Source: a bacterium (lineage in GTDB: Bacteria > Electryoneota > JAOADG01). From it: a DNA stretch of 64,000 nucleotides. The stretch is from NCBI GenBank assembly GCA_026417415.1, contig JAOADG010000001.1:6671-70670 (forward strand), read 5' to 3'. Position 1 is the first letter of the stretch, and every line of letters begins with the position of its first letter. The notes beneath the pieces were generated by a model. That model saw nothing but the letters and a program-made list of their open reading frames with translations, made no database searches and was not told where the DNA came from. The position numbers and the translations under genes are program-made. Below, in pieces: positions 48,516-60,943 of this stretch.

Positions 48516-49917
48516 AGCAATGTTCAACAAAGATACATGTTTTCATCTGATTGGAATTGCTGGCACTGCAATGGCAGGTGTAGCGTTGTTGTTAAAAGAG
48601 TTGGGTTATCAAGTACAAGGATCAGATAGTGATATATATCCACCTATGTCAACACTATTGGAAGAAAATGAAATTCCATGTATGATGCCCTTTTCGATTC
48701 ATAATTTACCTAAGAACGATAAAGTAGTTGTAATCGTTGGGAATGCAATTTCACGCGGAAATGTTGAATTAGAGACAGCATTGAATTTACGTTTACCGAT
48801 TTTTTCTATGCCAGAAATCATAAGGTTTTTGATTTTAATGCGACGTGAACCTATTGTAGTTACTGGTACACATGGAAAAACAACTACAACATCGTTAATG
48901 ACCTATACCATGAAACATTGTCATCGGAATGTTGGATATTTAATTGGAGGAATTCCTAAAGATTTTCAAAAGAACGCTTACTTAGGCCTCGATCCAATTT
49001 TTGTTATTGAAGGTGACGAATATGATACAGCTTATTTTGATAAACGTTCCAAATTTTTACATTACGTACCTAAAATTGTAATTCTATTGAACATAGAATT
49101 TGATCATTCTGATATCTTTCAAAACATAGATGAAATTGAACGAAGTTTCTATAGATTAATTTTAACGATTCCAGAAAATGGTTTATTGATCTATTTTGAA
49201 GAAGACGAGCGTGTGAGTAAAGTTGCTCAATTTGCAAGATGCAAGAAGATTTCATTTGGTTTAGAAAATGGTGATGTCCATTTGTTCAAAGATAATTCTA
49301 CTGAAAGCAAAATAGTATTTCCTGATGGTAGAATGTATTCTTATCAATTATCTTTAACTGGAAAACACAATTTATGCAATATGTTAGCTGTGGCTACAAC
49401 TGCGTTCGGGATTGGTCTTGATATGGATTTAGTGATACAATCATTTCAAACATTCCGTGGTGTTATCAGAAGAATGGATGTAATATATCAAAACGATATG
49501 ATTGTGATTGATGATTTTGGACATCATCCGACGGCTATAATGAAAACTTTAGAAGGAATAAAACAAAAATATCCAAATCGGAGAATACTTGTAGCATTTG
49601 ATCCAAGAAGCAACACTTCTGTTAGAAAATTTTTTCAAAAAGAATGGGTAAAAACTTTTGCTCTTGCTGATCGAGTTTGGATTAATCAACTTCATCGGTT
49701 GGAAAAAATACCCATTCAGGAGCGACTTGATAGGGAACAATTGGTTCATGATTTAAAATGCATTAATGTAGAGGCCACTGCGGTAGAGAATAGTGATCAA
49801 ATGCTGAATGAAATGTTAGAAACTGTTTGTAAAGACGACATCGTCGTATTTTTCAGTAATGGTAGTTTTCAAGGAATTAAAGAAAAATTCGTTCAATATT
49901 TAAAATCCAAAAATTAG
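48508..49917 (+). CDS. mpl: UDP-N-acetylmuramate:L-alanyl-gamma-D-glutamyl-meso-diaminopimelate ligase (murein peptide ligase)
   Basis: 469 aa. HLIGIAGTAMAGVALLLKELGYQVQGSDSDIYPPMSTLLEE closely parallels the Mpl N-terminus. VTGTHGKTTTTS P-loop of Mur ligases. Confidence 0.85.
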   Translation: MSKAMFNKDTCFHLIGIAGTAMAGVALLLKELGYQVQGSDSDIYPPMSTLLEENEIPCMMPFSIHNLPKNDKVVVIVGNAISRGNVELETALNLRLPIFSMPEIIRFLILMRREPIVVTGTHGKTTTTSLMTYTMKHCHRNVGYLIGGIPKDFQKNAYLGLDPIFVIEGDEYDTAYFDKRSKFLHYVPKIVILLNIEFDHSDIFQNIDEIERSFYRLILTIPENGLLIYFEEDERVSKVAQFARCKKISFGLENGDVHLFKDNSTESKIVFPDGRMYSYQLSLTGKHNLCNMLAVATTAFGIGLDMDLVIQSFQTFRGVIRRMDVIYQNDMIVIDDFGHHPTAIMKTLEGIKQKYPNRRILVAFDPRSNTSVRKFFQKEWVKTFALADRVWINQLHRLEKIPIQERLDREQLVHDLKCINVEATAVENSDQMLNEMLETVCKDDIVVFFSNGSFQGIKEKFVQYLKSKN

Positions 49918-50009
49918 GGAGCGGCTGCGTGCCTGGTGGTCGCCACGGCCTTCAAAGCCGCTTGTGAGGAGGAAACTTCTCAGCTGGGTTCGATTCCCAG
50001 ACGCTCCCG
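49917..50009 (+). tRNA. selC: Class II tRNA with anticodon UCA: putative selenocysteine tRNA
   Basis: Acceptor GGGAGCG (49917-23) pairs with CGCTCCC (50002-08); discriminator G50009; no encoded CCA. T arm CTGGG-TTCGATT-CCCAG (49984-50000), with one extra base A50001 opposite G49924 (8+5-like stack). Anticodon loop CTTCAAA (49950-56) gives UCA. Long variable arm TGAGGAG-GAAA-CTTCTCA (49965-82). The D arm and anticodon stem fold imperfectly by eye. Confidence 0.7.
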
Positions 50010-50022
50010 CAAAGTAAAATCA

Positions 50023-50358
50023 ATGTTTGAAAGCATAGACACAATTTTTATTCAAGTATCCAATTTTGAAAAAGCGAGATCTTTCTATGCTTATCAAGTA
50101 GGATTGCCAGAAATACATTTAGAAGACGAATTTATTGGGTTTTCAATTGGTGATACTACTCTTGTGATTGAAGAAGTTGAAACTACGAATATGCAAAAGT
50201 CAAAAATAAGTGTCATTGTAGAAGACATTCACTCAGTGTATCAAGAATTAATTGAAAGAGGTGTGTCAGTAAAAACAGATAGTCATTTCATTACTTCGCA
50301 AGATATTCTAACATTTTACGATCCAGATGGCAATCAATGGATTTTAGTACAAGAATAG
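50023..50358 (+). CDS. VOC (glyoxalase/bleomycin-resistance/dioxygenase) family protein
   Basis: Start moved to ATG 50023, because the ORF-track N-terminal extension is the tRNA gene. 111 aa. IDTIFIQVSNFEKARSFY ... FYDPDGNQWILVQ is the typical VOC beta-alpha-beta-beta-beta module. Confidence 0.65.
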   Translation: MFESIDTIFIQVSNFEKARSFYAYQVGLPEIHLEDEFIGFSIGDTTLVIEEVETTNMQKSKISVIVEDIHSVYQELIERGVSVKTDSHFITSQDILTFYDPDGNQWILVQE

Positions 50359-51130: not shown

Positions 51131-51718
51131 CTAAAACATTCCTCCTAACCATTCAAATAAAAGAAAATCAAATCTTGAAATCAACAGCGATAATCTACCC
51201 ATCACTGTAGTACCATATGCTGCACCAAAGCTTAGCATTAAAAAACCTATCCCGATTTTTGAAACTTTTGATAAATGTTTATGCTCTAAAGCAAAAAAGA
51301 AATAAGTTAAAGAAGTTAAAGTTCCCAGAATAATCAGCAAGTTGTTTATTGAAGTCGGTGATAGCATTGTACCCTGAATTTGTGCGATTAAAAAACCTTG
51401 TGTGTACTGAATCATATTTAATGCTGCACCAACGCCGATATAAATTGCGATAGGGTATCGTGCGATCCATTGATATTTTGGAATAAGACGTAGCAATAAA
51501 AGGAGGCCTAATACACCTGGTATTAGAGGTAGATAATCACCCAAAAGAACTTTATCAACTACATTCGGTTTTACAACACTGTGCCATTGTACAGCAATAT
51601 AATACCCTGTAGAAATTCCAATAAAGATATGTTCTGCAAGACGGTAAATCGGATTATCTCGATATAGAAAACTAAAAATCGCAAGTGTAAAAAATGCTGC
51701 AACCCAAGTACCGATCAT
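51131..51718 (-). CDS. Polytopic membrane protein (gene 4 of an unknown four-gene operon)
   Basis: 195 aa with about 6 predicted TM helices. Its start overlaps the upstream gene by 4 nt. No family recognised. Confidence 0.4.
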   Translation of the reverse strand: MIGTWVAAFFTLAIFSFLYRDNPIYRLAEHIFIGISTGYYIAVQWHSVVKPNVVDKVLLGDYLPLIPGVLGLLLLLRLIPKYQWIARYPIAIYIGVGAALNMIQYTQGFLIAQIQGTMLSPTSINNLLIILGTLTSLTYFFFALEHKHLSKVSKIGIGFLMLSFGAAYGTTVMGRLSLLISRFDFLLFEWLGGMF

Positions 51719-52575
51719 TTTTTAATTCGCATCGCTGAAATGTTTTTAAGAATTATATTTCGAACAACGGATACATTCCCTAAAAAAATGAAAAAGATAA
51801 TTACTAAATGAGCCACAGATTGTGCATCCATTCCACGAGTGGCTTTACCTTTGGTACCAACAAGTTTTTCATATTCTGCAGCACCTTTCAATCCACCTAA
51901 AAGTCCAACCAATTGTCCTGTTTGGACAAATGCTTCATATTGTGGAATACTTACTGCAGTAACACCTGCGGCTAACGGTACACCAAATTGTGCTAGACCT
52001 ATTGTTATGTAAAAATCTACTGTTGCTCCATGGGCTACATCCACCATAAATGATAAGTGACGATAACTTGGAAACCTTGAAAAAATTTCCATTTCTTGAG
52101 TCGAATTCCCACGAAAATCTTTAGGAAAGGATGTTGTCCATGAACTTCCTAAAGCCATTAATAAAACATCATTTCCAGGTTTAAAGCCGAGATTGACGTA
52201 ATGTTTGCCATATTCTCGTTGAAATTTTGCTGCCAATGGTTCTAATACACGTTCTGCGATTGGACCAGTTTCGGGAAAATTGGTGTAAACAATTAGTACT
52301 TTACCTGACTTCATTACATGATGACATAATGAAATAGCCATCGGTAAACATTCTGGAATAGAGGACGGATCAAAATCAAAAGCGATTAAAACGGCTGAAG
52401 TATCTGGGAGGTTTTCTATACGATCATAAACTGCTTTTACATGTTTTGTTACGGTAAGTGGTAAATTGAGAGGAAACAATAAAGGAAAAAGTATGGATAA
52501 TGATACAAATAAATACACCCAACGGCGATCAAGTTTTCCTAATGCTTCCCAAATTGGTTTTACTTTCCTAACCAA
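51715..52575 (-). CDS. Bitopic membrane protein with a central soluble alpha/beta-like domain (gene 3 of the unknown operon)
   Basis: 286 aa. N-terminal TM helix (WVYLFVSLSILFPLLFPL) and C-terminal TM helix (VAHLVIIFFIFLGNVSVV). The soluble core shows alternating strand/helix segments (AVLIAFDFD..., KVLIVYTN...). No family recognised. Confidence 0.4.
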   Translation of the reverse strand: MVRKVKPIWEALGKLDRRWVYLFVSLSILFPLLFPLNLPLTVTKHVKAVYDRIENLPDTSAVLIAFDFDPSSIPECLPMAISLCHHVMKSGKVLIVYTNFPETGPIAERVLEPLAAKFQREYGKHYVNLGFKPGNDVLLMALGSSWTTSFPKDFRGNSTQEMEIFSRFPSYRHLSFMVDVAHGATVDFYITIGLAQFGVPLAAGVTAVSIPQYEAFVQTGQLVGLLGGLKGAAEYEKLVGTKGKATRGMDAQSVAHLVIIFFIFLGNVSVVRNIILKNISAMRIKK

Positions 52576-53177
52576 GATCGCTCAATCCCTAAAAGTGTTT
52601 TAAGACCTGTTGCGATAAGACCTAATGCAGCACCAATCGTCAATGCACGCTGTGCTGCTAAAGAAGGAACGCTTAGGATCCATTGTGAAATTTCTGGAAA
52701 TTTAGACCACAAAATTTCACCAATAGGCACCTTTCCAATCATTACCAATACTGCTGCAACAAACAGCAATGTGGCGTGAAGATTGCGAACACGAAAGGCA
52801 CGATAACTTGCTGATGAAACATAAAATGCAAGTAATGCAAACATTGTTGATTGCATCGGATTTTGAACATTTTTAAACAACCATTGAAAAGCACCATTCG
52901 GTCCGTAATCTACAAAAATACCTAGTGTAACCATAAGTAATAAACAAACAACTAATACCAAGCTATAATACCATCCATCATATTTACGTTGAATGCGTTG
53001 AAGGTGTGATAAAAAAATGCTAATTCCTCCCATTAAATAACTAAAACTTAATAGAATGATTACCCAATCCATCATTCCATTTTGAAGTTTCGTAAAAAGA
53101 GGAATACGGAAAAAGAATTCAACCAAAATGATTAAACCAGCAATTCCACAAATGATAATCGCTGTAAAACGTAGCAT
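52560..53177 (-). CDS. Polytopic membrane protein (gene 2 of the unknown operon)
   Basis: Start moved to ATG 53177 (MLRFTAIIICG), one base after the upstream TAA; the ORF track starts at 53231. About 6 TM helices. No family recognised. Confidence 0.4.
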   Translation of the reverse strand: MLRFTAIIICGIAGLIILVEFFFRIPLFTKLQNGMMDWVIILLSFSYLMGGISIFLSHLQRIQRKYDGWYYSLVLVVCLLLMVTLGIFVDYGPNGAFQWLFKNVQNPMQSTMFALLAFYVSSASYRAFRVRNLHATLLFVAAVLVMIGKVPIGEILWSKFPEISQWILSVPSLAAQRALTIGAALGLIATGLKTLLGIERSWLGK

Positions 53178-53178
53178 G

Positions 53179-54123
53179 TTATTCCGTTTGAAACCAGTGG
53201 ATAAAATCAGTCCAACCAAACCACGCTGCAAGAGTTCCTAAAACGATAAGAAGTCCAAACAGCGCCTTTGACCAATCTTGACCTAATATAGTACCTAATA
53301 AAATGGGTTCTCTAGATAAATAAGCACTAGCAGCGAATAGTTCTTCACCGATTAGGGTATAATCACAAGATGCAAGAAAAAAAGGAAGTTGGTGTGAATT
53401 CGCAGTACCTGCTATTTGTATAGCACCAGTAGTATTGCCTGCTTCAGAAATTACTAATGATTCTGCATAAAATTCACCTATAAAAAAATGTGCAGCAGTT
53501 TTTACACGAACCATATGCCCGGTGATTGCTGCAGCAAAAGCAAATTGGTTATCTGTGATGTATTGAACTCGATCAGGGGAGAATAAATCGGGTCGTCCAG
53601 CTGTCAAATAACTTTGACGAAGAATTTCTTGTGAAGTACTCATCAATAAAGGAAAACGTGTCATGACATCTAAATCAACTTCGTATGTCGCACATTCATA
53701 TCCAACTTTAGAAAGAATAGCAATCCCTGCTAATGTTTGAATACGATCAACATCCATACTTCCGGGTACAAATAGAACTGGACGACCCATTTCTGCTGCA
53801 CGTCCCACTGCTTCATCAATTGCATCAAGGCCAGCAATTTTTCTTAGTGTTAAGGAGTGATTACGTTTTGCTAAAAACAAAAACGTTAAAACAAGCGCCG
53901 AAATGATTATCAAAAAGATGAAAACATTCAGTCGCTCTGTTTTAAAAAGTGGTTGTATTTCAGGTTTTGATAAATGTACTTTGGAAGGTAAACTTTGTTG
54001 GTTATTCACTGCTATTTTTAAGGAATCAATCTGTACCTTTGTAGAGATTGAATTTCCAAAGCTAATTTGGAATGTACAAAAAATTACTCCAATGATGAAT
54101 AGGGATAGAGATAATGATTTCAT
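53179..54123 (-). CDS. Signal-peptide-bearing membrane protein with a central soluble domain (gene 1 of the unknown operon)
   Basis: 314 aa. Signal peptide MKSLSLSLFIIGVIFCTFQISFG, a TM helix (VFIFLIIISALVLTFLFLA), a ~190-aa soluble region (GRPVLFVPGSMDVDRIQTLAGIAIL...) and a C-terminal TM helix. No family recognised with confidence. Confidence 0.4.
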   Translation of the reverse strand: MKSLSLSLFIIGVIFCTFQISFGNSISTKVQIDSLKIAVNNQQSLPSKVHLSKPEIQPLFKTERLNVFIFLIIISALVLTFLFLAKRNHSLTLRKIAGLDAIDEAVGRAAEMGRPVLFVPGSMDVDRIQTLAGIAILSKVGYECATYEVDLDVMTRFPLLMSTSQEILRQSYLTAGRPDLFSPDRVQYITDNQFAFAAAITGHMVRVKTAAHFFIGEFYAESLVISEAGNTTGAIQIAGTANSHQLPFFLASCDYTLIGEELFAASAYLSREPILLGTILGQDWSKALFGLLIVLGTLAAWFGWTDFIHWFQTE

Positions 54124-55357: not shown

Positions 55358-55733
55358 AAATTTTCTTTTTCTCTTTTTGGCATTCCTTATAGGAGTATCG
55401 TTTTATAGTTGTAAAACAAGTAAAAAAGAAACTCAATTGTTAAAAAAAGATTGCCAAGAAATCATACAACAAGCACAAGAATGGTATGGTGGATTAGACA
55501 CGCAAATAGCAATGCAGTATGGCTATTCAAAATTAACCTTTAGGGAACTCGGAAAATTACCGGAAACATTATCCAATAACGATTTGACGTGGACGAATCA
55601 AAACGGTTCATATACGATATCCGACAGAACCTCTGATTCGTTTACATTAACTGCTGTAGGAATGGAAGAAGAAAAAGTACAATATTTCGTAGTAAAAAAC
55701 GATCCTGTAAAAGAGCCCAAGATTTTTCGTTAA
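55347..55733 (+). CDS. Small lipoprotein, unknown function
   Basis: 128 aa. Signal plus lipobox FLIGVSFYSC. Overlaps rnd by 11 nt, and its stop overlaps the stop of the convergent kbl gene. Confidence 0.4.
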   Translation: MVNKNFLFLFLAFLIGVSFYSCKTSKKETQLLKKDCQEIIQQAQEWYGGLDTQIAMQYGYSKLTFRELGKLPETLSNNDLTWTNQNGSYTISDRTSDSFTLTAVGMEEEKVQYFVVKNDPVKEPKIFR

Positions 55734-56917
55734 TGTATAATTCCTAACTTTTTACCAATCTGTGTAAATGCATCTACAGCGAATAAAATATCTTCTGTTG
55801 TATGAATTGCAGAAATTTGAACCCTTATTCTTTCTTGCCCTTTTGCGACAACCGGATAAAAGAAACCAATCACATAGATTCCTTTTTCAAATAGTTCATT
55901 AGACATTGCTTGTGCAAGTTGAGCATCTTTTAACAATACTGGTACAATTGGAGTTGTGCCACGTACATCAAATCCTGCTTCTTTCATTTTCTTTCGGAAT
56001 AACTCTGTATTTTCTTTTAGTCGGGTGCGAAGTTCAGGCATTGTTTTGACTAATTGAAACGCTTCAATGCTAGCTGCTACAATTACAGGTGGAAGTGAAT
56101 TTGAGAACAGGTAGGGTCGTGATTTTTGTCTTAACCATTCAATAATTTCTTTTTTACCTGTTGTAAATCCACCATTTGCTCCACCCAAAGCTTTCCCTAA
56201 AGTTGAAGTGATAATATCTACCTTTTGCAAAACACCAGTTTCTTCACATGATCCACGTCCTGTTGGACCAATAACACCACTGCCATGGCAATCATCTACC
56301 ATTACTAACGCTTCGTATTTTTCCGCTAAGGCACAAATTTCTTGGAGCGGGGCTATATCGCCATCCATTGAAAATACACCATCCGTTACAATTATTTTCT
56401 TTTTAGCGGAATGGTTTTGTTTCAATAATTCCTCAAGATGGTTCATTTCTGCATGACGATACCGAAATCTTTTTGCTTTACTCAAACGAATTCCATCAAT
56501 AATGCTTGCATGATTTAATTCATCTGAGAAAATGCAATCATCTTCATTAAATAAAGGTTCAAAAACACCACCGTTCGCATCAAAACAAGCAGCATAAAGG
56601 ATCGTATCTTCGGTCTGAAAAAAGTTGGCAATTACTTGTTCAAGTTCTTTATGGATTTCTAAAGTACCGCAAATAAAACGTACACTAGATAAACCGAAGC
56701 CCCATCGTTCCAAAGCAAGTTTTGCTGCTTCAATAATTTTAGGATGATTGGCTAAGCCCAAATAGTTATTCGCACAAAAATTAAGTAATGTTTTCCCATT
56801 GACTTGAATGGTATTTCCTTGCGGGGTAGAGAGAACTCTTTCACTTTTATATAGACCCTTCTCAAATAAACCAAGTAGTTCATTTTGAAGTAATTTTTGA
56901 ATTTGTTCTGATACCAT
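55730..56917 (-). CDS. kbl: Glycine C-acetyltransferase (2-amino-3-ketobutyrate CoA ligase), alpha-oxoamine synthase family, paralog 1
   Basis: 395 aa, colinear with E. coli Kbl as recalled. NFCANNYLGLANHP, SVRFICGT, CFDANGG, LNHASIIDG, DGVFSMDGD, PLP lysine in TLGKALGG, RPYLFSNS, GFFYPVV. The DDSHA motif is altered to DDCHGSG. Confidence 0.8.
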   Translation of the reverse strand: MVSEQIQKLLQNELLGLFEKGLYKSERVLSTPQGNTIQVNGKTLLNFCANNYLGLANHPKIIEAAKLALERWGFGLSSVRFICGTLEIHKELEQVIANFFQTEDTILYAACFDANGGVFEPLFNEDDCIFSDELNHASIIDGIRLSKAKRFRYRHAEMNHLEELLKQNHSAKKKIIVTDGVFSMDGDIAPLQEICALAEKYEALVMVDDCHGSGVIGPTGRGSCEETGVLQKVDIITSTLGKALGGANGGFTTGKKEIIEWLRQKSRPYLFSNSLPPVIVAASIEAFQLVKTMPELRTRLKENTELFRKKMKEAGFDVRGTTPIVPVLLKDAQLAQAMSNELFEKGIYVIGFFYPVVAKGQERIRVQISAIHTTEDILFAVDAFTQIGKKLGIIH

Positions 56918-57052
56918 AATTCACCTAATACATTAGACAACTGTGAATTTGGAACGTACTAAATCGTTTCGTATTTTTCAAAACAAGTCCACGTGATTCT
57001 CCATTGAGCGAAGATCTCCACTTGTGTTAGGAATAAATTCAATATGTGAATT
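56918..57052. promoter_or_regulatory. Divergent control region with four AATTCA(C)/(G)TGAATT half-sites
   Basis: AATTCAC 56918-24 and GTGAATT 56943-49 form an inverted pair with an 18-nt spacer that abuts the kbl start. AATTCA 57036-41 and TGAATT 57047-52 form an inverted pair with a 5-nt spacer, 25 nt before the acsA-like ATG. A CACGTG palindrome lies at 56990-95. Confidence 0.3.
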
Positions 57053-57076
57053 AAGATACTTTTTGAAAGGAGTTTT

Positions 57077-58777
57077 ATGAGAAACATCACTTCTTACGAA
57101 GATCTTGTGAAAAATTTCGATTGGAGTATTGCTGAAAAAGAGTTAGACTATCAAAAAGGAAATCCAATCAATATCGGTTGGTACTGTTCTGATCGAAATT
57201 GTCTTAAAGGAAAAGCAAATAAAATTGCTTTGATGTGGGAAGATTATAACGGTAAAACCAAAACCTTCACATTTAACGATATTCGTTTATTTTCAAATTC
57301 TATTGGTACATTTTTACAACAACAAGGCATTCAACCAGAAGAACGAGTTTGTTTGTTTATGGATCGTGTGCCTGAATTATACATTGGATTCCTTGGTGTT
57401 CTCAAGATTGGTGCTATTGTGCAACCATTGTTTTCTGCATTTGGCCCAGAATCACTTTTTACAAGATTAGAAAATGCTCAAACTTCTGCAATCATTACTC
57501 AGAAAAAACATTTATCAAAAGTCAGAAAAATAATTCATGATTTGCCACATTTAAGAAAAATATTCGTAATCGACTCAGACGAAACTTCATTAAAAGACAA
57601 AGAAGTACTTTTAGAAATGGAAAAACTTCCAAAAAATGAAAATTTTGAGTGCTATCCAACCTATGCTGAATCACCCTCAGTTCTACATTATACAAGTGGT
57701 ACTACTGGACAACCAAAAGGTGCGCAACACGTGCATTATTCAATAATAGCACAATACATTACTGCAAAATACGTACTTGATTTACAAGAAAATGATATCT
57801 ATTGGTGTAATGCTGATCCGGGTTGGGTTACGGGTACTTCTTATGGTATCATTGGTCCTTGGTCCAATGGTGTAACTCAAGCTGTACTTGACTCAGGTTT
57901 CAATTCACAAAAATGGTATGAATTTATACAAAAATACCGAATTACTGTTTGGTATTCTGCACCTACTGCAATCAGATTATTGATGCGCGATGGTACAGAC
58001 CTAGTGAAGCAACATGATTTGTCTTCGTTGAGACATTTGTGTAGTGTTGGTGAACCGTTAAATGCTGAAGCGGTCATTTGGTCAAAACAAGCGTTTGGAT
58101 TGGAGTTTCACGATACCTATTGGCAAACTGAAACTGGTGCTATCGTGATTACAAACTTTCCCGGAATGCCAATTAAACCGGGCTCTATGGGTAAACCATT
58201 TCCCGGTATTACCGCGACAGTTTTAGATTTACAAACCTATGAGCCCATTACAACTCCCGGAAAAGTTGGATTAATCGCATTAAAACCGGGCTGGCCATCC
58301 CAAATCCGAACATATTGGAACAATGAAGAAGGGTTTCAGAAAAAGTTTAAAAATGGATGGTACATATGTGGTGACAGAGCAAGCATTGATAGCGATGGAT
58401 ATTTCTGGTTTGTGGGAAGAGATGATGATGTGATAAACACAGGTGGTCATTTGGTAGGTCCGTTCGAGATTGAATCTGCATTGTTAGAACATCCCGCAGT
58501 TGCAGAATCCGCAGCATTTGCAAAGCCTGATCCAGTGAATATGGAAGTTGTAAAAGCGTGTATTGCATTAAAACCCGGATATGAACCTTCGGAAGATTTG
58601 AAGTTAGAAATTATGAATTTCGTTCGTAAAAAACTATCTCCTTTAGCTATGCCACAAGAAATTGAATTTGTTACTTCTTTACCAAAAACTAGAAGTGGAA
58701 AAATTTTAAGAAGAGTATTAAGAGCAAAAGAGTTTAATGAACCAATTGGTGATCTTTCTACTTTAGAAAACGATTAA
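57077..58777 (+). CDS. Adenylate-forming acyl-thioester synthetase, Bacillus AcsA-type (acetyl-CoA synthetase-like)
   Basis: 566 aa. YTSGTTGQPKG, DIYWCNADPGWVTGTSYG, HDTYWQTETG, GDRASIDSDGYFWFVGRDDDVI, PKTRSGKILRR and the C-terminal GDLSTLEND are nearly colinear with short-type AcsA as recalled. SD AAAGGAG precedes the ATG. Confidence 0.8.
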   Translation: MRNITSYEDLVKNFDWSIAEKELDYQKGNPINIGWYCSDRNCLKGKANKIALMWEDYNGKTKTFTFNDIRLFSNSIGTFLQQQGIQPEERVCLFMDRVPELYIGFLGVLKIGAIVQPLFSAFGPESLFTRLENAQTSAIITQKKHLSKVRKIIHDLPHLRKIFVIDSDETSLKDKEVLLEMEKLPKNENFECYPTYAESPSVLHYTSGTTGQPKGAQHVHYSIIAQYITAKYVLDLQENDIYWCNADPGWVTGTSYGIIGPWSNGVTQAVLDSGFNSQKWYEFIQKYRITVWYSAPTAIRLLMRDGTDLVKQHDLSSLRHLCSVGEPLNAEAVIWSKQAFGLEFHDTYWQTETGAIVITNFPGMPIKPGSMGKPFPGITATVLDLQTYEPITTPGKVGLIALKPGWPSQIRTYWNNEEGFQKKFKNGWYICGDRASIDSDGYFWFVGRDDDVINTGGHLVGPFEIESALLEHPAVAESAAFAKPDPVNMEVVKACIALKPGYEPSEDLKLEIMNFVRKKLSPLAMPQEIEFVTSLPKTRSGKILRRVLRAKEFNEPIGDLSTLEND

Positions 58778-58794
58778 ACGAAAGGAAAAACATT

Positions 58795-59052
58795 ATGGAT
58801 GAACACAAGAAGTTAATTCTCGATTATGTAAAGAGAGAGTATTTAGAAGAGGATGATGATCAAGAAGTTACTTATGATACACCGTTGATTTCAGGAGGAA
58901 TAGTTGATTCTTTTTCAATGGTAAGTTTAAAAGTATTCCTTGAGAAGAAATACAACATTCAAATTCCTGATGCAAAAGCTACCCCGCAGGCCTTTGATAC
59001 GGTAAACAACATTTATAAACTATTAAAAGAATTTCGACCTGATTTACCATAA
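58795..59052 (+). CDS. Phosphopantetheine-binding carrier protein (ACP/DltC-like)
   Basis: 85 aa and acidic. PLISGGIVDSFSMVSLKVFLEKKYNIQIP places a Ser in the G-x-(V/L)-DS context of carrier proteins, followed by the helix II/III pattern. Lies 17 nt after the ligase gene. Confidence 0.6.
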   Translation: MDEHKKLILDYVKREYLEEDDDQEVTYDTPLISGGIVDSFSMVSLKVFLEKKYNIQIPDAKATPQAFDTVNNIYKLLKEFRPDLP

Positions 59053-59056
59053 TCAA

Positions 59057-59074
59057 TTTCCGTTGTAACGGAAA
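59057..59074 (+). other. Intercistronic hairpin abutting the Shine-Dalgarno site of the downstream alpha-oxoamine synthase gene
   Basis: TTTCCGTT-GT-AACGGAAA is a perfect 8-nt inverted repeat; sterically about 6-7 bp would pair. Its 3' arm runs into GAAAGGAG (SD) with the ATG at 59084. No T-tract follows. Confidence 0.3.
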
Positions 59075-59083
59075 GGAGTCAAT

Positions 59084-60328
59084 ATGTCCTATATTGCAGG
59101 AAAAAGAGTATTTTCAGAAATGATACAAAAAATTAAAGAGGATGGGTTATATAAACAAGAGCGTTTAATTTGCAGTCCTCAAGGTCCTGAGATCATCGTA
59201 CGTTTTCCAGAAAATGCACCAGAAAAAAAAGTTATCAATATGTGTGCGAACAATTATCTTGGGCTATCTAGCCATCCAGAGATAGTTCATGCTGCACATA
59301 ATGCTTTAGATGATCGCGGGTATGGCATGTCTTCTGTGCGATTTATTTGTGGAACACAGGATGTACATCGGCAACTCGAACTTAAAATTGCAGAGTTTCT
59401 TGGAATGGAAGATGCTTGTGTATTTTCAAGTTGTTTAGATGCGAATGCTGCTTTATTTGAGGTTTTATTGACCGAAGAAGATGCAATTATTGCAGATCGT
59501 TTAGTACATGCTTCCATTATTGATGGGATACGATTATCGAAAGCACAAAATTTCAATTTCAAGCATTCAAATATGGAACATCTTGAAGAAAAGTTACAAG
59601 AAACTCAGAATCATCGATTGCGATTGATTGTGGTAGATGGTGTGTTTTCAATGGATGGTGATATGGCACCGTTGGATAAAATTTGTGAATTAGCAGAAAA
59701 GTATGATGCTATGGTTGCGGTAGATGATTCACATGCAACAGGTTTTATTGGAAAAACTGGGCGTGGAACACACGAATATTTTGGTGTCATGGATAAAGTG
59801 GACATTATCACAACTACCTTTGGTAAAGCATTAGGAGGTGCAAACGGTGGGTGTGTTGCTGGAAAAAAAGAGATTGCTGATCTGATGAAGCAACGAGGAA
59901 GACCTTATTTATTTTCCAATGCTGTGCCCCCACCAGTAGCAGTTGCATCCATTCGTGTTCTTGACATTTTATCTCAAACTACAGAGAGGCGAGATAAACT
60001 GGAGCGACTCACTGCATATTGGAGAAAAGGACTTACTGATGCAGGGTTTGATCTAAAAGAAGGGAACACTCCAATCGTTCCTGTGATGCTGTACAATGCT
60101 AAATTAGCACAGCAATTTAGTAAAGAACTTTATGATGAAGGTGTTTATGCGGTTGGTTTCTTTTTCCCTGTAGTTCCGATGGGACAAGCACGCATTAGAA
60201 CACAAATTTCTGCTGCACACGAAAAAGAACATTTGGATTTCGCACTTGATGCATTTAAAAAAGTTGGAGAACGATTAGGTGTATTAGGTCTAAAAAAGAA
60301 AGAAATTTTAGCAAAATTTGGTGAATAA
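59084..60328 (+). CDS. Alpha-oxoamine synthase, Kbl-like paralog 2 (PLP-dependent acyl-thioester:amino acid C-acyltransferase)
   Basis: 414 aa. MCANNYLGLSSHP, SVRFICGT, DGVFSMDGD, DDSHATGF, PLP lysine in TFGKALGG, RPYLFSNA. It differs from paralog 1 and E. coli Kbl at CLDANAA (vs CFDANGG) and VHASIIDG (vs NHASIIDG). It also has an N-terminal insertion RFPENAPEKK and a 14-aa C-terminal tail. Confidence 0.8.
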   Translation: MSYIAGKRVFSEMIQKIKEDGLYKQERLICSPQGPEIIVRFPENAPEKKVINMCANNYLGLSSHPEIVHAAHNALDDRGYGMSSVRFICGTQDVHRQLELKIAEFLGMEDACVFSSCLDANAALFEVLLTEEDAIIADRLVHASIIDGIRLSKAQNFNFKHSNMEHLEEKLQETQNHRLRLIVVDGVFSMDGDMAPLDKICELAEKYDAMVAVDDSHATGFIGKTGRGTHEYFGVMDKVDIITTTFGKALGGANGGCVAGKKEIADLMKQRGRPYLFSNAVPPPVAVASIRVLDILSQTTERRDKLERLTAYWRKGLTDAGFDLKEGNTPIVPVMLYNAKLAQQFSKELYDEGVYAVGFFFPVVPMGQARIRTQISAAHEKEHLDFALDAFKKVGERLGVLGLKKKEILAKFGE

Positions 60329-60342
60329 TTACAACGTGTTTG

Positions 60343-60378
60343 AAAAAAATAGGACTCATTGAGAGTCCTATTTTTTTT
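60343..60378. terminator. Bidirectional rho-independent terminator
   Basis: A7-T-AGGACTC (60343-57), loop ATTGA, GAGTCCT-A-T8 (60363-78). A-tract and T-tract flanks allow termination for both convergent transcripts. The GNAT stop codon lies within the 3' arm. Confidence 0.7.
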
Positions 60379-60943
60379 CATAATATTCTTGTTCTAAAAT
60401 TGCATAAAATTTTAATGTTCGTATTTCGTTTTTTACAAAAAAAGCTTCTCTAAAAATTCCTTCTAATTTCATTCCTACTTTTTGAAGTACTCTTTCTGAT
60501 GCAACATTGCCTTCAAAAACTCCAGCCTCAATTCTATGTAAGCGCAAAGTTTCAAATCCATATTGAAGTACAGCATTAACCGCTTCTGTCATTATTCCAC
60601 GATTCCAAAAATCTGGATGTAAAGCAAAACCCAATTCAATACGTCTGTGTTCCGGTCTAAAACGGTGCATTCCAATCGTACCGATGATCTTCTCTTGTTC
60701 AAGTAACTCAATGCCCCATATGGGTGGTGTTATTCCATCGTAAGTTTGTAAAATGCGTTCAATAAACTGGTTTGTCTCTACAATAGTAGAATGTGAGTTC
60801 CATAAAAGAAATTTGGTGACTCGATCCAGTTTAGCATACTCGAAAATGTCGTTTGCATCGTAAGTTGTGATTTTTCTAAGTAGAAGACGTTGAGTATTTA
60901 GGATAGGAAATGGATCAAAGCGAATATCTAAAAATTGAGTCAA
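60368..60943 (-). CDS. GNAT family N-acetyltransferase (RimJ/RimL-like)
   Basis: 191 aa. LLLRKITTYDANDIFEY ... IGTIGMHR ... LGFALHPDFWNRGIMTEAV..VLQYGF ... RIEAGVFEGNVASERVLQKVGM matches the Acetyltransf_3 / RimL pattern. Confidence 0.75.
   Translation of the reverse strand: MTQFLDIRFDPFPILNTQRLLLRKITTYDANDIFEYAKLDRVTKFLLWNSHSTIVETNQFIERILQTYDGITPPIWGIELLEQEKIIGTIGMHRFRPEHRRIELGFALHPDFWNRGIMTEAVNAVLQYGFETLRLHRIEAGVFEGNVASERVLQKVGMKLEGIFREAFFVKNEIRTLKFYAILEQEYYEKK

Follow-up and report, generated by a model that had tools for sequence, protein, structure and literature searches.

The 64,000 nucleotides of contig JAOADG010000001.1 analysed here (the window), from a bacterium of the Electryoneota, encode in three closely spaced co-directional genes an AcsA-like adenylate-forming ligase, an 85-residue acyl carrier protein (ACP) and AOS2, a Kbl-family alpha-oxoamine synthase (AOS). 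These genes, hereafter the triad, recur together in about ten phyla, and their arrangement is far beyond chance and not a local accident. The reading that we prefer, with modest confidence, is that the triad carries out a carrier-protein-bound version of the Kbl step in threonine and glycine metabolism that would not depend on coenzyme A (CoA).

In such a scheme a holo-ACP synthase, whose gene lies in the operon of many relatives and would be found elsewhere in this genome, would convert ACP to its holo form. The ligase would adenylate acetate (acetate + ATP + HS-ACP <-> acetyl-S-ACP + AMP + pyrophosphate), forming, or in reverse consuming, acetyl-S-ACP in place of acetyl-CoA, and AOS2, a pyridoxal phosphate (PLP)-dependent enzyme presumably specialised for ACP, would catalyse acetyl-S-ACP + glycine <-> 2-amino-3-oxobutanoate + HS-ACP. 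Threonine dehydrogenase would link 2-amino-3-oxobutanoate to L-threonine, while the divergently encoded canonical Kbl (AOS1) would run a parallel CoA-dependent branch. We infer the loading of ACP by the ligase, acetyl as the acyl group, glycine as the amino acid and the direction of the reaction from sequence, synteny and models.

The triad and its conservation

The locus comprises the following features:
55730-56917, minus strand: AOS1, a canonical Kbl (glycine C-acetyltransferase) of 395 amino acids, divergent from the triad
56918-57076: divergent intergenic region of 159 bp between kbl and the triad, presumed to hold the promoters; contains the Shine-Dalgarno (SD) site of the ligase gene
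57077-58777, plus strand: AcsA-like adenylate-forming ligase of 566 amino acids (PF00501 and PF13193), proposed acetate:[ACP] ligase
58795-59052, plus strand: dedicated acidic carrier protein (ACP) of 85 amino acids, predicted phosphopantetheine site Ser39
59084-60328, plus strand: AOS2, ACP-linked Kbl-family alpha-oxoamine synthase of 414 amino acids, PLP lysine Lys248
60343-60378: bidirectional intrinsic terminator between AOS2 and a convergent GNAT gene, a hairpin with an A-run and a T-run

The three genes are linked in other genomes as well, which the initial annotation had proposed to check. A scan of one genome per species, in which ACP served as the search sequence, showed a relative to be encoded in at least 472 species-level genomes (first 600 matching stretches). 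From these, 80 loci were fetched (L numbers denote loci), and the arrangement was seen again in all 80. The census was made by tblastn, since the open reading frame (ORF) caller had overlooked some of the short ACP genes where GC content was high. The 80 loci represent about ten phyla and, by record title, include Ignavibacteria, Aminicenantes, Acidobacteria, Holophagae, Thermoanaerobaculaceae, Zixibacteria, Calditrichaeota, KSB1, WOR-3, Gemmatimonadota, Fibrobacteraceae, Chrysiogenales, Kapaibacterium and Bacteroidota, the labels of metagenome-assembled genomes being used as deposited and a few bins having doubtful ones. An AOS2-type gene lies directly 3' of the ACP gene in 73 of 74 loci, and a ligase gene lies directly 5' of it in 57 of 71 loci and within 6 kb in 64 of 71; in most loci ACP is placed between ligase and AOS2 with gaps of 0-30 nt. 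Measured against the window proteins, the ligases of the fetched loci are about 70% and the AOS2 proteins about 65% identical, and ACP reaches about 75-80% across phyla. In a reverse test, metagenome contigs were searched with AOS2 as query: all 14 loci that have an AOS2-clade gene and upstream DNA carry ACP and ligase, whereas canonical kbl loci have neither, 16 of them (L109-L123, L131) having tdh upstream instead. Since the forward and reverse tests agree, the linkage of ligase, ACP and AOS2 is specific in both directions. No record identical in sequence to the window ACP turned up. The loci closest to the window triad are L001, L092 and L093; genes with a T9SS-type Por_Secre_tail are neighbours in L001 and hint at a bacterium of the FCB group. 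In the Kapaibacterium/Ignavibacteria loci L060, L063, L067 and L075 an insertion of about 0.7-1 kb separates ACP from AOS2; the one in L060 (10348-10842) encodes a PD-(D/E)XK nuclease family protein (PF13366) and looks like a selfish element within the operon.

Within the window, the layout drawn from the letters alone stands in full: ORF positions, gaps of 17 nt (ligase to ACP) and 31 nt (ACP to AOS2), strong SD sites and terminator are all as the initial annotation had them. The SD sites are AAAGGAG for the ligase (57066-57072), AAAGGAA for ACP (58781-58787) and AAAGGAG for AOS2 (59072-59078). Such sites are unusual for the window: of its 62 ORFs of at least 100 amino acids, 5 are preceded by a site of the AAGGAG class, ligase and AOS2 being two of the five, and 47 have no SD site; this strength suggests high expression of the triad. 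The terminator hairpin has a perfect 11-bp stem inside a longer A-run/T-run helix, with a folding free energy of -19.5 kcal/mol (z = -6.1; none of 200 shuffles as good), and its strong fold, with the A-run 5' and the T-run 3', makes it credible as a bidirectional terminator that also serves the convergent GNAT gene. The base composition of the triad region is that of the remaining window, and no Rfam riboswitch or leader was found upstream of the operon, either at the gathering score or at E <= 1. An inverted repeat, TTTCCGTT GT AACGGAAA, lies between ACP and AOS2 (59057-59074) and overlaps the start of the AOS2 SD site; it could affect how AOS2 is translated or be a point at which the RNA is processed. 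The convergent gene (60368-60943, minus strand; PF13302, 120 bits) encodes a RimJ/RimL-type GNAT acetyltransferase. As it is not kept beside the triad in related loci, a role in acetyl-lysine control of the ligase, of the AcuA/AcsA kind, is unsupported.

Whether the 85-residue product is a carrier protein, as had been read from the context of its serine, is answered differently by family models and by conservation. Its PF00550 score of 18.9 bits falls under the gathering score of 20.8, and the 14 NCBIfam ACP/DltC models that match it all do so under cutoff, the best being ACP_for_OlsHI (61.7 against 130). Nevertheless, homologues are found in at least 7,998 protein clusters, the best 120 listed being 74-93% identical to the window ACP, and residues G34-K46 (GGIVDSFSMVSLK), which include Asp38-Ser39, are invariant in 43 homologues. 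The protein is acidic (isoelectric point 4.6), and its AlphaFold2 model (pLDDT 87) has a helical carrier fold with the conserved Asp-Ser at the start of helix II. Template modelling (TM) scores are 0.63-0.81 to PigG, PltL, DltC, VinL, AcpP and the Bradyrhizobium glycine carrier. We therefore accept the protein as a genuine carrier, on conservation and the fold model, with Ser39 as the predicted attachment site. The best PDB matches of the model, PigG, PltL, DltC, VinL and the Bradyrhizobium glycine carrier, are stand-alone carriers, and its resemblance to carriers that are directly loaded by stand-alone adenylating enzymes counts in favour of ACP being loaded by the ligase. A link to the ornithine-lipid proteins OlsH/OlsI, hinted at by the best ACP model, was rejected given its score (61.7 against 130) and the lack of a GH3-like or OlsI gene nearby.

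The two Kbl paralogues differ as had been described: the motif differences, the N-terminal insertion and the C-terminal tail are real by alignment. AOS1 is a canonical Kbl. It matches PF00155, exceeds the cutoff of TIGR01822 (623 bits against 493) and that of NF005394, shares 57-58% identity with E. coli Kbl and clusters with this enzyme in a neighbour-joining tree. AOS2 also passes these models (PF00155, 210 bits; NF005394, 590 against 460; TIGR01822, 582 against 493), is 52-53% identical to E. coli Kbl and has solved Kbl structures as its best PDB matches (450-461 bits). Its residues N56, H142, D214, H217, K248 and R372 align with Asn50, His136, Asp210, His213, Lys244 and Arg368 of E. coli Kbl, which we take to be the catalytic set of that enzyme, Lys244 being the PLP lysine. 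However, all ACP-adjacent AOS2 proteins fall in one clade of 57 sequences apart from E. coli Kbl, and the Kbl-type genes of about 420 codons that often lie 3' of AOS2 make further groups; median identity is 79% in the AOS2 clade and 69% among the Kbl-type genes, against 54% between the two. The trees are neighbour-joining trees without bootstrap, and we rely on the agreement of clade membership with synteny, not on deep branching order. An orthologue of canonical Kbl would share its clade and have tdh as its only partner; AOS2 does neither.

The AOS2 clade is marked by fixed changes, which are, in E. coli Kbl numbering, N135V, F/Y253C, F112M/L, A56S and N57S. Its members have further gained six basic residues (positions 72, 133, 154, 160, 298 and 321) and a conserved C-terminal tail of about 13 residues; relative to AOS1, the window AOS2 has the insertion RFPENA (residues 40-45) and a 13-residue tail. 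The basic residues are suggestive of docking to an acidic carrier, which they would suit. Overall charge was discarded as docking evidence, since the medians (-2.5 against -4.9) lie too close together to decide the matter.

The change N135V gives AOS2 the motif ADRLVHAS, which is like ADRLSHAS of BioF, where Kbl has SDxLNHAS. E. coli BioF uses acyl-ACP. Given that the motif ADRLxHAS is common to the AOS2 clade and E. coli BioF, AOS2 might be imagined to condense alanine with an ACP-bound dicarboxylate such as pimeloyl-ACP for biotin synthesis. We regard this as highly improbable: the BioF model scores AOS2 at 379, below its cutoff of 426, whereas the Kbl models score 582-590, above theirs; AOS2 matches E. 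coli BioF with about 208 bits and E. coli Kbl with about 451; the pocket of the ligase is acetate-sized; and no bio genes occur in any neighbourhood. The other family identities that were considered for AOS2, namely serine palmitoyltransferase (SPT), the sulfonolipid enzyme CFAT, 5-aminolevulinate synthase (ALAS) and CqsA, were rejected together with BioF, as every model stays under its cutoff and far under Kbl (SPT models 236-339, with cutoffs of 500-670). Nor does any ceramide synthase or reductase family recur in the neighbourhoods examined.

The acid and the acceptor of the ligase

The ligase (PF00501, 249 bits; PF13193, 83 bits) is AcsA-like, as had been recognised, and scores 766.8 bits with the acetate--CoA ligase model NF003313, only just above the cutoff of 729. 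Among proteins of solved structure, B. subtilis AcsA is its best match (580 bits, 47% identity). The acetate-pocket residues V310, T311, V386 and W414 of the acetyl-CoA synthetase Acs correspond to V251, T252, V324 and W349 and are kept in 48-51 of the 51 ligase-cluster sequences, and the catalytic A10 lysine (Lys609 of Acs, Lys542 here) is kept in the cluster as well. As the pocket is conserved, the acid is most likely acetate.

It is less evident that the acceptor should be CoA. In Acs, Arg191, Arg526 and Arg584 are needed for CoA binding and catalysis, and mutation of Arg528, the M. thermautotrophicus equivalent of Arg526, leaves an enzyme that CoA cannot saturate or whose kcat is 130- to 326-fold lower (PMC10455477). 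In the A8 motif of the window ligase, Arg526 is replaced by Leu459, and leucine occupies this position in 51 of 51 ligase-cluster sequences. Arg191 has no arginine aligned to it, although Lys192 and Arg194 are close by in a loop whose alignment is uncertain. Arg584, the residue in contact with the CoA 3'-phosphate, is retained. The full set of three CoA-site arginines is thus absent.

In a tree built after a search of cluster representatives, a super-clade of AcsA-like ligases stands out by its A8 motif, Gly-His-Leu, while proven CoA ligases keep the arginine. In a sister clade with a VTVF pocket, all three sampled members (P0127, P0128, P0132) adjoin a carrier of 77-79 amino acids and an MBOAT. 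These clusters, at L152:129-4630, L154:5001-10524 and L155:236-4800, are Dlt-like, and their AcsA-like ligases have A8 Gly-His-Leu and the pocket change Trp414 to Phe. DltX-like peptides of 36-43 amino acids are present in L152 and L155, each of which also has an extra neighbouring gene with a faint match to LB_356 (L152) or DUF1574 (L155), and the carriers of both are homologous to the window ACP (27-31% identity, E ~1e-11). Because the sister ligases are paired with homologous carriers, ligase and carrier look like an inherited pair, and this relationship between their sequences is the best computational evidence available that the ligase may load ACP directly. The L152, L154 and L155 clusters look like Dlt-like O-acylation systems, perhaps using a short fatty acid instead of D-alanine, and their ligases are candidates for supplying the unknown acyl donors of MBOAT acyltransferases.

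The leucine at position 526 was also considered as a marker unique to ACP-linked ligases and dismissed as such: it is common to the wider super-clade, including the Gly-His-Leu ligases P0125, in a polysaccharide cluster, and P0126, beside an E1 dehydrogenase, neither of which has a visible adjacent carrier. The motif alone is thus not diagnostic. In one Ignavibacteria genome, a second, tandem ligase copy lies directly 5' of the ACP-linked ligase (L034:6430-8154). Its pocket is enlarged (W309G, W414L) and it scores 651 with NF003313, under the cutoff of 729; judging from this pocket, the acid that it loads onto the shared carrier may be a larger one.

Threonine metabolism and the direction of the reaction

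The 64-kb window contains neither a threonine dehydrogenase gene (tdh), whose absence had been remarked on, nor acpS. In relatives, tdh, acpS and kbl share the operon of the triad. About 20 of 67 related loci have acpS immediately 5' of the ligase gene, 25 of 61 have a Kbl-type gene no more than 5 kb 3' of AOS2, and 15 of 80 have a bona fide tdh anywhere in the locus; the identities of these neighbours were confirmed by curated models. The WOR-3 locus L061 has the order tdh, acpS, ligase, acp, aos2 and a SoxB/ThiO-like flavin adenine dinucleotide (FAD) oxidase, with successive gaps of 5, 0, 23, 13 and 50 nt, and no other kbl in the 20 kb of the locus. Co-directional operons that begin with tdh occur also in Zixibacteria (L029, L030, L082), Bacteroidota (L080) and the metagenome locus L093, which repeats the order of L061 without acpS and encodes the closest AOS2 found to that of the window (79%). 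The presence of tdh in tight operons with the triad connects AOS2, through its substrate or product, with 2-amino-3-oxobutanoate and so with acetyl and glycine, and the sharing of operons with tdh, acpS and kbl places the module in threonine, glycine and acetate metabolism rather than making AOS2 a Kbl paralogue freed from this pathway. The original idea of a carrier-bound short acyl group, condensed with glycine by a Kbl-like AOS, is supported by the carrier, the clade, the synteny and the pocket, and it came through each refuting test that the initial annotation had named. The gene that follows AOS2 by 50 nt in L061 (11558-12688), and at the same position in the WOR-3 locus L077, encodes a DAO-family FAD oxidoreductase, like SoxB, ThiO or DadA and under all curated cutoffs; it is possibly a partner that oxidises glycine or an aminoketone.

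It is possible that the locus simply serves ordinary CoA metabolism, the ligase being an acetyl-CoA synthetase, AOS2 a second Kbl isozyme and ACP an unrelated or regulatory passenger, with clustering explained by shared acetyl-CoA, glycine and threonine. Ligase and AOS2 do pass the NCBI cutoffs for acetate--CoA ligase and glycine C-acetyltransferase, they resemble B. subtilis AcsA and E. coli Kbl to the extent given above, Arg584 is kept, and tdh and kbl are neighbours. We consider this quite unlikely, however, since a passenger would not be expected to sit between ligase and AOS2 at such identity across phyla, nor to accompany the AOS2 clade one-to-one while being absent throughout from canonical kbl/tdh loci. 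Moreover, acpS has been recruited to the operon, sister ligases are paired with homologous carriers, and both enzymes carry fixed clade changes: Arg526 to Leu in the ligase, the six basic residues and the tail in AOS2.

Several observations nonetheless weigh against a carrier-bound Kbl step. The ligase still exceeds, if narrowly, the cutoff for acetate--CoA ligase and retains Arg584, and P0125 and P0126 share its A8 motif without a visible carrier beside them. Some Aminicenantes and Ignavibacteriaceae loci lack a nearby ligase, and where none is adjacent, the genes upstream are unrelated ones (SdhAB). N135V, F/Y253C and F112M/L lie near active-site motifs, so that the acyl or amino-acid specificity of AOS2 may differ from acetyl and glycine. 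The adjacency of tdh and kbl could in part be a relic of an origin of AOS2 by duplication of kbl. Finally, a CoA-dependent Kbl and an ACP-dependent AOS2 that are co-expressed would be redundant or futile unless they work in the same direction or are separately regulated.

Alternatively, the module could make a specialised product, in that acetyl or another small acid bound to ACP is condensed with glycine or another amino acid to a free alpha-amino ketone, comparable to aminoacetone, pyrazines, CAI-1 or AI-3, which would be a signal or the precursor of a cofactor or lipid head group. A stand-alone carrier with an adenylating enzyme and an AOS is indeed typical biosynthetic logic, as in AasR/AcpR/Spt of sphingolipid synthesis and, as further cases, SxtA and PigH/RedN. 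The same fixed changes by the active site (N135V, giving the BioF-like DRLxHAS, F/Y253C and F112M/L) would fit an altered specificity, and the enlarged pocket of the L034 tandem ligase suggests that other acids are loadable. This scenario is possible, if on the unlikely side, because 86 neighbourhoods show no conserved gene for a reductase, a transaminase, a transporter or any other tailoring function, and only acpS, tdh and kbl recur in them. In addition, conservation and phyletic breadth are like those of housekeeping enzymes, SD strength suggests high expression, and the models for SPT, BioF, ALAS and CqsA all remain under cutoff. The lack of conserved tailoring genes, together with housekeeping-level conservation (about 70% for the ligase, about 75-80% for ACP, 79% within the AOS2 clade), makes a central-metabolic role likelier than the signal, pyrazine or lipid head-group role suggested initially.

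Why the Kbl step should be moved onto a private carrier may have a thermodynamic reason. Such a carrier pool could stay nearly all acetylated or nearly all free, independent of the ratio of acetyl-CoA to CoA, and this would favour the reaction in either direction. That a carrier-bound Kbl step would serve threonine breakdown, with acetyl-ACP then converted to acetate and ATP by reversal of the ligase, comes close to an even chance. Tdh is usually catabolic, many carriers of the triad are presumably peptide fermenters, canonical kbl is co-transcribed, and a glycine-oxidase-like gene follows the operon in WOR-3; furthermore, reversal of an AMP-forming Acs to make ATP has been shown for SaAcs1 of Syntrophus aciditrophicus (PMC13404658). 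The opposite direction, from acetate and glycine to 2-amino-3-oxobutanoate and threonine, is a serious if lesser contender, as every characterised ligase/ACP/AOS system works by loading and condensing (PMC9386255); what likelihood is left falls to other directions. A rather speculative form of the breakdown scheme is carrier-channelled energy conservation, in which Tdh would be followed by AOS2 cleavage with holo-ACP to glycine and acetyl-S-ACP. The private pool of acetyl-ACP, being highly charged, would then push the ligase into reverse, so that acetyl-ACP + AMP + pyrophosphate would yield acetate + ATP + ACP. If true, a phosphopantetheinyl carrier would for the first time be seen to serve, with an AOS, a catabolic route that yields ATP, and the route would be widespread in anaerobic bacteria of the FCB group and in Acidobacteriota; its mirror image, the ATP-driven conversion of acetate and glycine to threonine, would be comparably new.

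Two further regions of the window were noted in passing. A tRNA-Sec gene (49917-50008, plus strand; Rfam RF01852, 66.9 bits) indicates that the host organism uses selenocysteine, and since the listed ORF 49936-50358 begins within it, the real start of that ORF is probably further downstream. At 51131-54123 (minus strand), four overlapping or abutting genes encode membrane proteins, one with DUF6754 (355 bits) and three without a Pfam match, in what looks like the operon of an uncharacterised membrane complex.

Automatic annotation gives the triad proteins the names acetate--CoA ligase, acyl carrier protein and glycine C-acetyltransferase, which hide that they form one obligate unit. The unit is spread over Ignavibacteriota, Acidobacteriota/Aminicenantes, Zixibacteria, Calditrichota, KSB1, WOR-3, Gemmatimonadota, Fibrobacterota and Chrysiogenota, among others. 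If the triad indeed catalyses a carrier-bound Kbl step, a textbook CoA reaction would have a protein-bound twin, models of threonine, glycine and acetate flux would change for abundant sediment and bioreactor bacteria, and the ligase/ACP/AOS principle would reach from long-chain sphingolipids to C2 metabolism. It would also define the Gly-His-Leu super-clade of AcsA-like ligases, several members of which apparently acylate carriers rather than CoA and which includes candidate donors for O-acylation by MBOAT proteins, and an AOS specific for acetyl-ACP would be a useful biocatalyst.

Relation to known systems

The arrangement had been put forward as one not known to have been characterised, and no description of an AcsA-like/ACP/Kbl-like module was found in the open-access papers searched. 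Its parts nevertheless resemble known systems to different degrees. Compared with the Tdh-Kbl pathway of E. coli, AOS2 keeps the catalytic residues, tdh is in the operon in several phyla and the same carbon-carbon chemistry is proposed; the thiol partner, however, would be a protein-bound phosphopantetheine instead of CoA, AOS2 forms a separate clade with fixed substitutions and a tail, and an acetate ligase and an ACP are obligatory partners. The ligase shares fold, motifs, acetate pocket and the A10 lysine with AMP-forming acetyl-CoA synthetases (B. subtilis AcsA, S. enterica Acs, SaAcs1), but has leucine for Arg526 in 51 of 51 sequences and is encoded in one operon with a carrier protein.

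In DltA/DltC and in the L152, L154 and L155 clusters, as in the triad, a stand-alone adenylating enzyme is encoded beside a carrier of about 80 residues with the Asp-Ser motif at the start of helix II. The likeness to the three clusters goes further, as their ligases belong to sister clades that share the A8 change of Arg to Leu, and the L152 and L155 carriers are homologues of the window ACP. In these Dlt-like systems, however, the acyl group is passed to a membrane MBOAT, whereas the triad lacks an MBOAT and has a soluble PLP-dependent AOS as the partner. Acetyl-S-ACP itself has a precedent in central and catabolic metabolism: CitC of citrate lyase and MadH of malonate decarboxylase make it from acetate, ATP and HS-ACP on a dedicated carrier. 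Their enzyme families are unrelated to those of the triad, the prosthetic group is 2'-(5''-phosphoribosyl)-3'-dephospho-CoA, and acetyl-ACP acts there as a catalytic cofactor, not as the substrate of an AOS.

Among characterised systems, the one that comes closest is AasR/AcpR/Spt, from Caulobacter and other 'Rhodobacteria', which performs the first step of bacterial sphingolipid synthesis; AasR acylates only its dedicated ACP and not CoA, and Spt prefers acyl-ACP (PMC9386255). There, too, a small dedicated ACP gene lies directly 5' of the AOS gene and a dedicated ANL-family ligase is nearby, as they do in 73 of 74 and 57 of 71 triad loci, respectively. The ligase of that system, however, is long-chain and FadD-like, while that of the triad is AcsA-like with an acetate pocket, and its AOS is a serine palmitoyltransferase that yields 3-oxosphinganine, in contrast to the Kbl-family AOS2. 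That system belongs to Proteobacteria and has ceramide genes nearby, whereas the triad, in phyla of the FCB group, Acidobacteriota and others, has none and has tdh, kbl and acpS as its recurrent neighbours. From this comparison we rate the triad as an undescribed variant of the ligase/ACP/AOS logic known from bacterial sphingolipid synthesis.

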